The notes beneath the pieces are model-generated. The model did not search any database. It was not told the DNA's origin and was given only the letters and a program-made list of their open reading frames with translations. Positions 3,196 through 61,496 of a DNA stretch of 64,000 nucleotides are shown in pieces. A program made the translations under genes and the position numbers. The stretch is from assembly GCF_001677475.2 (NCBI RefSeq), contig NZ_CP015229.1; one strand, written 5' to 3'. Source of the stretch: Escherichia coli. GTDB taxonomy: Bacteria; Pseudomonadota; Gammaproteobacteria; Enterobacterales; Enterobacteriaceae. Within the stretch, counting starts at the first letter, position 1, and every line of letters begins with the position of its first letter.

Positions 3196-3574
3196 AATAA
3201 ATAGTATCCTGAAGGTGCATGTTGTTATCGATTTGCAACAAATGTTGTTCGATGTTGCAAACTGATAACCTTTTATTTTCACTTGGGAGAAAGGGGGGCG
3301 ATCGAGGTATATCTTTTTCTCCTTTCGCTATACATCCTAAGGAGTATTGCAGCGTGAAATTTTGATTTATTTCACATAGAGTTAGTGGTTTTTTATTTAT
3401 TTAATGGTTTTAAGTTTTTTAATTAATGTAATTACGAAATGACCCGCAGGTTTAAGTGATTTAATTGATTTAATGAATAAAATTTGCCACGATTATATTT
3501 AATATCTATGTATTTTGATTCAACATTTTAATTACATTCGTCAAAGAGGCTCGGGACAACCCGCAAGGAAAACA
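3196..3574. promoter_or_regulatory. divergent citC / dpiB control region, very AT-rich with tandem GATTTAAT motifs
   Basis: 379-bp non-coding spacer between divergently oriented citC and dpiB; AT-rich by eye, contains tgatttaattgatttaatgaat around 3456..3480. Confidence 0.4.
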
Positions 3575-51811: not shown

Positions 51812-53032
51812 TCAATTTTCCAGCAAATGCTGGAGCAAAATACCGTTGAGCATGGCGCGTTTTACCAGCGCAAAAGCGCCGATTGCCGAGCGGTGATCCA
51901 ACTCAGAACGTACCACCGGTAGATTAGTACGAAACGCCTTCAGCGCCTGGGTATTAATGCAGCTTTCAATAGCAGGGAGCAGCACTTTATCGGCTTCGGT
52001 GATTTCTCCAGCAATAACAATTTTTTGCGGATTAAATAAGTTGATAGCAATGGCGATGGTTTTACCCAGATGACGACCGACATATTCAATCACTTCCGAG
52101 GCCAGGCTATCGCCTTTGTTCGCGGCTTTGCAGATAGTTTTGATGGTGCAGTCGTCCAGTGGCACACGGCTCTGGTAGCCCTGCTTTAATAAATTCAACA
52201 CCCGTTGTTCAATGGCAGCGTTGGCAGCGATAGTTTCCAGGCAGCCGAAGTTGCCACAGTGGCAGCGTTCTCCCAGCGGTTCAACCTGAATATGACCAAT
52301 TTCACCGACGTTGCCGTTGCGGCCGATAAAAATGCGCCCGTTAGAGATGATTCCAGCCCCCGTTCCGCGATGCACGCGCACCAGAATGGAGTCTTCGCAA
52401 TCCTGACTTGCACCGAAGTAGTGCTCTGCCAGCGCCAGACTGCGGATATCGTGGCCGACAAAACAGGTCACTTTAAAACGCTCTTCCAATGCTTCTACCA
52501 GCCCCCAGTTTTCTACCTGAATATGCGGCATGTAATGAATTTTGCCGCTGTCCGGGTCAACAAGTCCTGGCAGGATCACGGAAATGGCGATCAGCTCGCG
52601 CAGCTTGCGCTGGTAGCTATCAATAAACTGAGCAATGGCGTTAAGCAGGGCATGTTCCAGCGTCTGCTGGGTACGTTCCGGCAGCGGGTAATGTTCTTCT
52701 GCCAGCACTTTGCTACTGAGATCAAACAAGGTGATGGTGGCGTCGTGACGACCAAGCCGTACGCCGATTGCGTGGAAATTGCGGGTTTCGGTGACGATGG
52801 AGATAGCGCGGCGGCCCCCGGTGGAGGCCTGCTGATCAACTTCTTTGATCAGCCCGCGTTCGATAAGCTGACGCGTAATTTTGGTTACGCTGGCGGGGGC
52901 AAGCTGACTTTGCTCGGCAATCTGAATCCGCGAGATTGGCCCATACTGGTCAATCAGGCGATAAACCGCCGCGCTGTTAAGCTGTTTTACGAGATCAACA
53001 TTACCTATCTGAGCTTGTCCGCCTGGTGTCAT
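51812..53032 (-). CDS. nagC: N-acetylglucosamine repressor NagC (ROK family)
   Basis: 406-aa ORF with N-terminal HTH and ROK Cys/His cluster (CHCGNFGCLE). Confidence 0.95.
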   Translation of the reverse strand: MTPGGQAQIGNVDLVKQLNSAAVYRLIDQYGPISRIQIAEQSQLAPASVTKITRQLIERGLIKEVDQQASTGGRRAISIVTETRNFHAIGVRLGRHDATITLFDLSSKVLAEEHYPLPERTQQTLEHALLNAIAQFIDSYQRKLRELIAISVILPGLVDPDSGKIHYMPHIQVENWGLVEALEERFKVTCFVGHDIRSLALAEHYFGASQDCEDSILVRVHRGTGAGIISNGRIFIGRNGNVGEIGHIQVEPLGERCHCGNFGCLETIAANAAIEQRVLNLLKQGYQSRVPLDDCTIKTICKAANKGDSLASEVIEYVGRHLGKTIAIAINLFNPQKIVIAGEITEADKVLLPAIESCINTQALKAFRTNLPVVRSELDHRSAIGAFALVKRAMLNGILLQHLLEN

Positions 53033-55049: not shown

Positions 55050-55381
55050 TATTCACCTCAATAAGTAAAATGTAAGCCGTTGGCGGATTAGGCATCTTTA
55101 AGCGTAACCTAGATTTGCGCAGACAGGCGTCAATCCGACCTGATTTTTTGAATGATAAAATAAGTTTTCTGGTTTAGCCAGTAAAAGGGAGTGATGATAA
55201 CGATATTTGGTGACAAAACTCACAAAAGACACGCGTTTAATTTGCGATACGAATTAAATTTTCACACACTCTGTAGCAGATGATCTAACAATCTGATTAC
55301 AGAACATCGGCAGTACAATTTGCAGCAAAATAAAAATACGGCTTTAAACGAGCCAAATAGGGTTCTCGTAGGGGGAATAAG
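55050..55381. promoter_or_regulatory. divergent nagB / nagE promoter region (NagC and CRP control in E. coli)
   Basis: 332-bp AT-rich spacer between divergent nagB and nagE; individual operator sites not resolved here. Confidence 0.5.
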
Positions 55382-57530: not shown

Positions 57531-59195
57531 ATGAGTGAGGCAGAAGCCCGCCCGACTAACTTTATTCGTCAGATCATCGATGAAGATCTGGCCAGTGGTA
57601 AGCACACCACAGTACACACCCGTTTCCCGCCGGAGCCGAATGGCTATCTGCATATTGGCCATGCGAAATCTATCTGCCTGAACTTCGGGATCGCCCAGGA
57701 CTATAAAGGCCAGTGCAACCTGCGTTTCGACGACACTAACCCGGTAAAAGAAGATATCGAGTATGTTGAGTCGATCAAAAACGACGTTGAGTGGTTAGGT
57801 TTTCACTGGTCTGGTAACGTCCGTTACTCCTCCGATTATTTTGATCAGCTCCACGCCTATGCGATCGAACTGATCAATAAAGGCCTGGCGTACGTTGATG
57901 AACTGACACCGGAACAGATCCGCGAATACCGCGGCACCCTGACGCAGCCGGGTAAAAACAGCCCGTACCGCGACCGCAGCGTTGAAGAGAACCTGGCGCT
58001 GTTCGAAAAAATGCGTACCGGTGGTTTTGAAGAAGGTAAAGCCTGCCTGCGTGCGAAAATCGACATGGCGTCGCCATTTATCGTAATGCGCGATCCGGTG
58101 CTGTACCGCATTAAATTTGCTGAACACCACCAGACTGGCAACAAGTGGTGCATCTACCCGATGTACGACTTCACCCATTGCATCAGCGATGCGCTGGAAG
58201 GTATTACGCACTCTCTGTGTACGCTTGAGTTCCAGGACAACCGTCGCCTGTACGATTGGGTGCTGGACAACATCACCATTCCTGTTCACCCGCGCCAGTA
58301 CGAATTCTCGCGCCTGAATCTGGAATACACTGTGATGTCCAAGCGTAAGCTGAACCTGCTGGTGACCGACAAGCACGTTGAAGGCTGGGATGACCCGCGT
58401 ATGCCGACCATTTCCGGTCTGCGTCGTCGTGGTTACACTGCGGCTTCTATTCGTGAGTTCTGCAAACGCATCGGCGTGACCAAGCAGGACAACACCATTG
58501 AAATGGCGTCGCTGGAATCCTGCATCCGTGAAGATCTCAACGAAAACGCCCCGCGCGCAATGGCGGTTATCGATCCGGTGAAACTGGTTATCGAAAACTA
58601 TCAGGGCGAAGGCGAAATGGTCACCATGCCGAACCATCCGAACAAACCGGAAATGGGGAGCCGTCAGGTGCCGTTTAGCGGTGAGATTTGGATCGATCGC
58701 GCCGATTTCCGCGAAGAAGCTAACAAGCAGTACAAACGTCTGGTGCTGGGTAAAGAAGTGCGTCTGCGTAATGCTTACGTCATTAAGGCTGAACGCGTGG
58801 AGAAAGATGCCGAAGGCAATATCACCACCATCTTCTGTACTTATGACGCCGACACCTTAAGCAAAGATCCGGCAGATGGTCGTAAAGTGAAAGGCGTTAT
58901 TCACTGGGTGAGCGCGGCACATGCGCTGCCGGTTGAAATCCGTTTGTATGATCGTCTGTTCAGCGTGCCTAACCCAGGTGCTGCGGATGATTTCCTGTCG
59001 GTGATTAACCCGGAATCGCTGGTGATCAAACAGGGCTTTGCTGAACCGTCGCTGAAAGATGCGGTTGCGGGTAAAGCATTCCAGTTTGAGCGTGAAGGTT
59101 ACTTCTGCCTCGACAGCCGCCATTCCACTGCCGAAAAACCGGTATTTAACCGCACCGTTGGGCTGCGTGATACCTGGGCGAAAGTAGGCGAGTAA
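57531..59195 (+). CDS. glnS: glutamine--tRNA ligase
   Basis: 554-aa [50 protein letters not shown]... (HIGH and VMSKR motifs). Confidence 0.95.
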
Positions 59196-59261
59196 TTTTA
59201 AGTTCTACCAGGCCGGGTGAGGCGTTTACGCCGCATCCGGCATGAAACATGCAAACAATCC

Positions 59262-59290
59262 AAAACGCCGCGCTCTGCGGCGTTTTTTTC
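59262..59290 (+). terminator. Rho-independent terminator after glnS
   Basis: aacgccgcgctctgcggcgttttttt; preceded by a REP-like unit ggcgtttacgccgcatccggca. Confidence 0.7.
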
Positions 59291-59643
59291 TGCTTTTCTT
59301 CGCGAATTAATTCCGCTTCGCAATTTATCCATAAAACAAATTTAAAATCACAAGCCATAATTAAATAAAATGTAACCGCTTTCATCTTGCTGGAATTTCA
59401 CGCTTTTATTCTTCTGCAAGCCTTTCAACTGCAAACTTAAGCCTTGTAACAAAAATCATCAAAATATGTGCGGTTGCTCATGTTCTTACATTCTGGTTAC
59501 AGAAAGAGATTGATAATTCGCGTCGCGAAAAATAGTCTGTTCCTGTAGTCAGCGAGACTTTTCTCAACGCTACTTTTTTAATTTTTATTTTTTTCGCTGT
59601 TCACCTTTGGTGCAGCAATTTATACGTCAAAGAGGATTAACCC

Positions 59644-61050
59644 ATGCGTACGTTTAGTGGCAAACGTAGTACGCTGGCGCTGGCTATCGCCGGTGTTACA
59701 GCAATGTCGGGCTTTATGGCAATGCCGGAGGCTCGCGCCGAAGGATTCATCGACGATTCAACCTTAACCGGCGGTATCTATTACTGGCAGCGTGAACGCG
59801 ACCGTAAAGATGTTACCGACGGCGACAAATACAAAACCAACCTTTCTCACTCCACCTGGAACGCCAACCTCGATTTTCAGTCTGGTTATGCTGCTGATAT
59901 GTTCGGCCTTGATATTGCTGCGTTTACGGCGATTGAAATGGCGGAAAACGGTGACAGCTCTCACCCGAACGAAATCGCGTTTTCAAAAAGCAATAAAGCC
60001 TATGACGAAGACTGGTCCGGCGACAAAAGCGGTATAAGCCTGTATAAAGCAGCGGCCAAATTTAAATACGGTCCGGTGTGGGCGAGGGCAGGTTACATTC
60101 AGCCAACTGGTCAGACGCTGTTAGCGCCGCACTGGAGCTTCATGCCGGGTACTTATCAGGGGGCGGAAGCCGGGGCGAATTTTGATTACGGCGATGCTGG
60201 TGCGTTGAGTTTCTCCTACATGTGGACCAACGAATACAAAGCACCGTGGCATCTGGAAATGGATGAGTTTTATCAGAACGATAAAACCACCAAAGTTGAT
60301 TATCTGCACTCCCTTGGGGCGAAATACGACTTCAAAAATAACTTCGTACTGGAAGCGGCATTTGGTCAGGCGGAAGGGTATATCGATCAATATTTTGCCA
60401 AAGCCAGCTACAAATTTGATATCGCCGGTAGCCCGTTAACCACCAGCTACCAGTTCTATGGTACGCGCGATAAAGTTGACGATCGCAGCGTCAACGATCT
60501 TTATGACGGCACCGCCTGGCTGCAAGCGTTGACCTTTGGTTACCGGGCGGCTGACGTAGTGGATTTGCGCCTCGAAGGCACCTGGGTTAAGGCTGACGGT
60601 CAGCAGGGATACTTCCTGCAACGTATGACTCCAACCTACGCTTCCTCGAACGGTCGCCTGGATATCTGGTGGGATAACCGTTCCGACTTCAACGCTAACG
60701 GCGAAAAAGCGGTCTTCTTCGGTGCGATGTATGACCTGAAAAACTGGAATCTTCCAGGCTTCGCCATCGGCGCTTCCTACGTTTACGCATGGGATGCTAA
60801 ACCTGCGACCTGGCAGAGCAATCCGGATGCGTACTACGACAAAAACCGGACTATTGAAGAGTCTGCCTACAGCCTGGATGCGGTGTACACCATTCAGGAC
60901 GGTCGCGCCAAAGGCACGATGTTCAAACTGCACTTCACCGAATACGACAACCACTCCGACATCCCAAGCTGGGGCGGTGGTTACGGCAACATCTTCCAGG
61001 ATGAGCGTGACGTGAAATTTATGGTAATCGCACCATTCACCATCTTCTGA
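59644..61050 (+). CDS. chiP: chitoporin ChiP (YbfM), outer-membrane porin
   Basis: 468-aa ORF with signal peptide [32 protein letters not shown] and C-terminal aromatic residue (F). Confidence 0.9.
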
Positions 61051-61426: not shown

Positions 61427-61465
61427 GTGAGAGCTGTAACTCTCGCTTTTCTTATTTCCCTTATA

Positions 61466-61496
61466 TAAAAAAGCCAACCCGCAGGTTGGCTTTTCT
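61466..61496. terminator. bidirectional Rho-independent terminator between chiQ and fur
   Basis: aaaaaagccaacccgcaggttggctttt: perfect hairpin flanked by A- and T-runs. Confidence 0.75.

Follow-up and report, generated by a model that had tools for sequence, protein, structure and literature searches.

The 448 bp that separate glnS from chiP in this Escherichia coli genome (59196–59643; by open reading frame calls the last base of glnS is 59195 and the first of chiP 59644) very probably constitute the whole regulatory region of the chitoporin operon chiPQ, a region already described, and not a single long leader. In order, the interval comprises a REP element, the glnS terminator, approximately 250 bp of AT-rich regulatory DNA, the chiP core promoter and a 99-nt 5′ UTR (Table 1). 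A sequence-only reading of the same DNA had described a long chiP leader of about 450 bp. The gap does have this length, but by homology to E. coli K-12 the leader would span only 59545–59643. The region aligns with K-12 at 96.5–98.5% identity, and is the orthologue, almost unchanged, of a regulatory region well characterised in E. coli and Salmonella; it is already known. As a discovery it carries little weight, and its practical value lies in annotation: the gap is correctly split into glnS 3′ elements, the chiP promoter with its operators, and a 99-nt leader (ChiZ), rather than recorded as one 450-nt UTR.

The window (the whole 64,000-nt stretch of contig NZ_CP015229.1 that was analysed) displays the K-12 gene order nagBACD, nagE, glnS, chiP, chiQ, fur, and also encodes nagC on the minus strand (51812–53032). 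The reading frames flanking the gap were identified using NCBIfam models: glnS (57531–59195) by TIGR00440, and chiP (59644–61050) by NF047822, which ChiP matches with 852 bits at a cut-off of 750. The region is present in 5421 of 5426 complete E. coli genomes, and only four of the 5426 match the query at ≥99% identity. The alignment with K-12 shows a single difference between 59447 and the chiP ATG, namely a T-run that is one T longer in the window.

Conservation was assessed in 80 Enterobacteriaceae chiP loci derived from one scan of species-representative genomes. The glnS–chiP gap measures 385–565 bp in all of them. A footprint was obtained from a MAFFT alignment against 66 non-Escherichia species, and its conserved blocks are discrete, beginning with the terminator stems and ending with the ChiX site; the U-tracts of the leader form one such block. 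This cross-genus footprint is a compact map of constrained bases, which could guide promoter dissection or a ChiX-controlled expression device based on the chiP leader.

Table 1. Features of the glnS–chiP interval in window coordinates; negative positions are relative to the putative chiP transcription start.
Feature	Position	Strand	Description
REP element	59211–59241	−	Exact match to REP pattern GCCGGATGCGGCGTNAACGCCTNAYCCGGCC; glnS 3′ UTR
glnS Rho-independent terminator	59262–59289	+	11-bp GC-rich stem, 3-nt loop, T7 tail; from terminator scan (59262–59286, then T7)
Distal NagC-like operator TCTGCTTTTCTTCGCGAATTAAT	59289–59311		PSSM 8.7 bits; right half conserved, left half degenerate in Escherichia
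CRP-like site a TGTAACCGCTTTCATC	59371–59386 (centre −166.5)		TGTAA-N6-TCATC; candidate, inferred
Short palindrome TTGT(A/T)ACAAA	59444–59453 (−101 to −92)		At least 90% conserved in 66 non-Escherichia species
CRP-like site c TGTGCGGTTGCTCATG	59467–59482 (centre −70.5, class I position)		TGTGC-N6-TCATG; candidate, inferred
chiP core promoter	59510–59538	+	−35 TTGATA (59510–59515), 17-bp spacer, −10 TAGTCT (59533–59538)
Proximal NagC operator GATAATTCGCGTCGCGAAAAATA	59512–59534 (−33 to −11)		Identical to published "ybfM proximal" site
chiP 5′ UTR, putative ChiZ	59545–59644 (99 nt to 59643)	+	K-12 RefSeq chiZ b4808, 708236–708333
ChiX pairing site CGTCAAAGAGGA	59625–59636	+	12 of 12 Watson–Crick pairs with ChiX nt 45–56

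The 3′ end of glnS is highly structured, with a predicted fold of −40.3 kcal/mol (z = −4.2) for the first 100 nt of the gap. Within this fold the REP element forms a hairpin. The REP consensus pattern found no match in 100 shuffles. A sub-threshold match to the REP-derived Rfam family naRNA4 (59211–59288, 36.4 bits) is accounted for by this single REP. The K-12 gap is 576 bp long and contains three REPs in a BIME-like cluster, compared with 448 bp and one REP in the window. In the alignment this 128-bp indel lies just after glnS (window 59196–59260), where K-12 is longer and carries the two additional REPs. The strong glnS terminator that the sequence-only reading placed ahead of the AT-rich stretch is present (59262–59286 plus the T7 run). 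Both arms of its stem are at least 90% conserved in the 66 non-Escherichia species, while the loop varies.

GC content is 52.6% for 59196–59290, 34.6% for 59291–59544 and 36.4% for 59545–59643, against 50.4% for the whole window, so that the description of the gap as AT-rich applies after the terminator but not to the first 95 bp, which hold the REP and the terminator. The repeated TTTTA and AATTA blocks described in the same reading do not survive comparison with dinucleotide-preserving shuffles of the gap, neither motif being enriched: TTTTA occurs four times against 2.7 expected, a count equalled or exceeded in a fraction of 0.28 of the shuffles, and AATTA twice against 1.2 expected (0.35). 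These AT-rich "blocks" are an effect of composition and not a repeat. Small open reading frames in the gap (22–79 aa, both strands) overlap the REP, the terminator or the operators and were set aside as lacking support.

The hexamers of the core promoter, TTGATA-N17-TAGTCT, have the appearance of a sigma-70 promoter with a weak −10 element, and a simple consensus scan missed them because of this weakness. The block in which they lie (59505–59539) is almost invariant across genera in the footprint against 66 non-Escherichia species. Six nucleotides separate TAGTCT from G59545, a spacing that fits the transcription start expected from homology. This start, and with it a 5′ UTR of 99 nt, is transferred from the K-12 start site, the chiZ annotation and published cloning primers, and would leave 59291–59544 (approximately 254 bp) as untranscribed promoter and operator DNA. 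The start site is taken from K-12, and an additional chiP promoter further upstream is a remote possibility. The primary paper on the chiP promoter is that of Plumbridge et al. 2014 (Mol Microbiol 92:648).

The proximal NagC operator occupies the spacer between the −35 and −10 hexamers, and its published counterpart is listed in Table 1 of FITBAR (PMC3098098). A PSSM constructed from the other nine sites of that table, with "ybfM proximal" left out, places this operator first among approximately 64,000 positions in the window, at 22 bits. The nagE and nagB operators (55236 and 55142) score below it even though they belong to the training set. Repression of chiP transcription by NagC has been reported (PMC4098024), and is also described in a 2026 bioRxiv preprint in which the chiP locus serves as an expression site.

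The distal NagC-like operator overlaps the T-tail of the glnS terminator, to which its left half is fused. Its core, GCGAATTAAT (59302–59311), is 80–90% conserved in the 66 non-Escherichia species. In other genera the orthologous near-palindrome (…TTCGCGATGCGAATTAAT) reaches 12–22 bits and is usually the second-best PSSM site of the gap. An overlapping alternative specific to E. coli (59307–59329) scores higher, at 11 bits versus 8.7, but was rejected, as cross-genus conservation favours 59289–59311. The proximal and distal operators are 223 bp apart here, centre to centre. Most of 68 species have a distal operator, 200–245 bp away, and the distances cluster near 212, 224, 235 and 245 bp, in steps of approximately 11 bp. 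Such steps would indicate helical phasing and hence looping, but no more than suggestively, given non-independent species and a broad periodicity peak.

This arrangement resembles other NagC-repressed promoters with two operators (nagE–nagB, chbB and glmUS), in which a high-affinity operator overlaps the core promoter and a second lies upstream; the CRP-like sites between the chiP operators would correspond to the CAP site of those promoters. The spacing differs, as the nagE–nagB operators in this window are 94 bp apart centre to centre, and the distal chiP operator is half-degenerate in Escherichia. The distal chiP site resembles the chbB distal site CTTAATTATCTTCGCGAATTATT, which also directly follows terminator-like sequence, and both share TCTTCGCGAATTA. 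At the divergent nagB–nagE promoters (55142–55258), NagC operators flank a CRP-like sequence, GGTGACAAAACTCACA (55209–55224), in a NagC–CRP–NagC layout. A further match to the NagC PSSM, CTTATTTCCCTTATATAAAAAAG, is located in the chiQ–fur interval just upstream of the chiPQ terminator (61451–61473); at 14.7 bits it is the fourth best in the window, and may be due to chance.

The remaining conserved blocks lie between the two operators. Candidate CRP site a is moderately conserved across genera, as TGTRAnCGCTnTCAT. Site c falls within a flanked block, AAATATGTGCGG..GCTCATG (59462–59482), that is at least 90% conserved in the 66 non-Escherichia species, and its orthologues in other genera read TGTGC-N6-TCATA, which resembles TGTGAAGAGGGTCATA, a CRP-like sequence that precedes chbB. 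Both sites share the TCAT right half with that sequence. Class I CRP sites are centred near −61.5, −71.5 or −92.5, and site c, at −70.5, matches seven of the ten core positions of TGTGA-N6-TCACA, a degree of similarity that occurs in the window at the frequency of chance (206 matches versus 226 expected). A genomic SELEX study lists ybfM among new CRP targets (PMC3105977). Taken with the conservation of the sites, this suggests that they may act in CRP activation of chiP, the sequence matches alone not being significant.

The short palindrome between sites a and c reads TTGTAACAA in this genome (59444–59452). Extending it into a three-copy TGTRM-N6-TCAT direct repeat, or CRP motif, was rejected, as the right half of the middle copy is not conserved and only TTGTWACAAA is constrained there. 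Direct repeats of AGGTCAA, seen upstream of chbB and attributed to ChbR, are absent upstream of chiP. It is possible, but on balance unlikely, that the palindrome, the CRP-like sites at −70.5 and −166.5 and the approximately 11-bp operator spacing together reflect an additional regulator or a phase-constrained NagC–CRP repression loop at chiP. Part or all of the palindrome, the CRP-like sites and the operator phasing may already have been published.

Downstream of the promoter, the leader coincides with a known small RNA. In the K-12 RefSeq record, an ncRNA named chiZ (b4808) occupies the 98 nt that abut chiP on its 5′ side. Adams et al. 2021 report a Term-seq 3′ end at K-12 708334, which is the A of the chiP ATG, and chiP and ChiZ cloning primers that start GTAGTCAGCG and TAGTCAGCG (PMC7815308). 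With a 5′ end as in the cloning primer and the 3′ context of the Term-seq peak (PMC7815308), 59545–59644 appears to be the ChiZ orthologue, and differs from K-12 ChiZ by one extra U in its U-rich linker. ChiZ has been described as a leader fragment of approximately 90 nt that is both Hfq-dependent and Rho-dependent, and its overexpression raises chiP and lowers ChiX (PMC7815308, PMC8043740).

The leader is predicted to fold into a 5′ hairpin (59545–59573), a 22-nt U-rich linker (59574–59595), a second hairpin (59596–59616) and a single-stranded tail, and the ChiX site lies in this unpaired tail. The fold of the 100-nt leader is not unusually stable (z = −1.3). RNAalifold applied to 20 leaders gives a weak consensus of five pairs (−2.4 kcal/mol), restricted to the outer 5′ stem, the second hairpin being misaligned by MAFFT.

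The pairing site for ChiX that the sequence-only reading anticipated in the chiP 5′ region, between 59500 and 59660, is found on the ribosome-binding site as 12 perfect Watson–Crick pairs. It includes the Shine–Dalgarno sequence GAGG (59632–59635), whose end lies 8 nt before the ATG. The window lacks a copy of chiX, which in K-12 lies approximately 200 kb away, and pairing was therefore computed with K-12 ChiX. Presence of the sRNA in the source genome is probable, since 5422 of 5426 complete E. coli genomes carry ChiX at ≥95% identity. Contiguous complementarity to the single-stranded ChiX seed (UCCUCUUUGACG) is present over the whole of 59625–59636. This is the only 12-mer on either strand of the window that is complementary to the GC-containing seed; three other 12-mer matches pair with the A/U-rich stretch of ChiX.

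Both strands of the 64 kb were scanned in 30-nt windows for duplexes with ChiX nt 23–58 (the single-stranded stretch), with a correction for opening energies. The chiP site ranks first in the window over both strands at −21.0 kcal/mol, approximately 5.5 standard deviations below the background (mean −7.2, standard deviation 2.5). No dinucleotide-shuffled target (300 drawn) and no shuffled ChiX stretch (300 drawn) attained this value. Making the mRNA site accessible costs 2.5 kcal/mol and opening ChiX 0.9 kcal/mol, leaving approximately −15 kcal/mol net for the 12-bp core, and cofolding of the leader with ChiX returns exactly the 12-bp helix at 59625–59636. An unconstrained RNAduplex run of full-length ChiX against the gap was discarded, as it produced an unrealistic 130-nt interaction with large loops.

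A 10-nt core of the site, GTCAAAGAGG, is kept at 17–19 nt before the ATG in 74 of the 80 Enterobacteriaceae species, whereas both flanks vary. Such a pattern fits a site that is constrained by pairing and not by the ribosome alone. In E. coli and Salmonella, ChiX–chiP pairing has been proven by compensatory mutations, as cited in PMC7815308, and involvement of Rho after pairing and the action of ChiZ as a sponge have been described (PMC7815308, PMC8043740). The site corresponds to the known system of the chiP (ybfM) 5′ UTR and ChiX (MicM/SroB/RybC) in K-12 and Salmonella, with the same glnS–chiP pair and the same 12-nt target over the Shine–Dalgarno sequence. No functional difference from the K-12 and Salmonella system was found, and the leader is identical to that of K-12 but for the one T.

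The second-best ChiX duplex in the window, CGTCAAAGAGG (3539–3549, −19.2 kcal/mol), is an 11-nt complement of the seed and sits in the 5′ UTR of dpiB (citA), whose start (ATG 3575) lies 25 nt further downstream. The dpiBA transcript is the other reported ChiX/RybC target, and on this account the dpiB site serves as an internal positive control for the scan.

A reading of the conserved GTCAAAGAGGA as no more than a strong ribosome-binding site, with incidental complementarity to ChiX, has in its favour that the 3′ half, GAGGA, is a canonical Shine–Dalgarno sequence suitably spaced from the ATG. However, conservation extends 5–7 nt upstream of the Shine–Dalgarno sequence (CGTCAAA), where the ribosome imposes no constraint, while the spacer to the ATG drifts. 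The 12-bp match is moreover the best ChiX duplex in 128 kb of strand searched, at an energy that no shuffle attains, and the same seed complement recurs at dpiB, the other reported target. Together with the compensatory mutations cited in PMC7815308, these observations make a coincidence of this kind scarcely credible, and ChiX pairing is retained as the reading of the site.

Two further explanations concern the DNA upstream of the leader. Transcription of the whole of the approximately 450 bp after the glnS terminator as one chiP leader, carrying cis-regulatory RNA elements, would account for a gap that is unusually long and AT-rich and whose length range is conserved across genera. It could start from the only sigma-70 consensus match of the simple scan, TTAAAA-18-TAAAAT (59342–59371), approximately 200 bp upstream of the chiP promoter. 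That match lies in poorly conserved AT-rich DNA and is probably spurious, whereas the −35/NagC operator/−10 block at 59505–59539 is invariant and the K-12 start site and chiZ annotation place +1 at 59545. Upstream, what is conserved consists of palindromic DNA blocks of the kind expected for protein operators, and the Rfam search of the gap detected no cis-regulatory RNA family, naRNA4 being the only notable match and below threshold. A leader of this length is therefore highly improbable. The AT-rich 250 bp might instead serve chiefly to silence a cryptic porin gene as a platform for nucleoid proteins of the H-NS/Fis type, which would bind the TTTTA and AATTA motifs, adding to or replacing the specific factors. 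A GC content of 35% versus 50% for the window, and reports that chiP is essentially silent under laboratory conditions, are compatible with this. Against it, both motifs occur at chance frequency, conservation is concentrated in discrete palindromic blocks rather than following general AT-richness, and silencing is already explained by the known specific regulators, leaving such a platform improbable. A compact promoter with operators and a short leader remains the preferred interpretation of the interval.

The following sequence of events can be proposed for this interpretation, with the start site, NagC repression, ChiX silencing, the Rho step and ChiZ function carried over from homology or the literature by sequence identity. 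The glnS transcript would end in the REP hairpin and the strong intrinsic terminator, and be followed by approximately 250 bp of untranscribed AT-rich DNA presenting protein sites (the distal NagC-like operator, two CRP-like sites and the palindrome). When GlcNAc-6-P is lacking, NagC, encoded 6.5 kb upstream, would block RNA polymerase from the spacer operator and probably loop to the distal operator 223 bp away; conservation is what suggests both this loop and activation by CRP. Transcripts initiated at G59545 would carry the 99-nt leader, with its 5′ hairpin, a U-rich tract that is a likely Hfq contact, the second hairpin and the single-stranded tail. Trans-encoded ChiX would pair through 12 bp with CGUCAAAGAGGA (59625–59636), occluding the Shine–Dalgarno sequence and blocking translation, and pairing would, according to the literature, expose the chiP message to Rho-dependent termination. 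The leader itself would accumulate as the sRNA ChiZ, of approximately 90–100 nt, which is reported to sponge ChiX. Together, chiP, ChiX, ChiZ and NagC are a textbook case in which transcriptional control is combined with that by an sRNA, and which includes both an mRNA decoy and a 5′-UTR sponge.

Among the significant positions tabulated in the supplement of Adams et al. 2021 is K-12 708624, equivalent to approximately 59934 in the window and approximately 290 nt into the chiP reading frame. This position may be Rho-related, in line with the Rho-dependent polarity reported after ChiX silencing.

Two departures from the common leader were observed among the other genera. In Kosakonia and related species (five loci), GCGTC(C/T)AGAAGGA replaces CGTCAAAGAGGA at −20 to −8 before the chiP ATG, giving the variant site GCGUCCAGAAGGA, which predicts a co-varying ChiX seed in those genera. 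In the Citrobacter freundii group (six loci), the chiP leader carries an inserted ERIC-like repeat of approximately 120 nt that directly precedes the ChiX site. It extends the UTR to approximately 220 nt, and a long hairpin is predicted for it.
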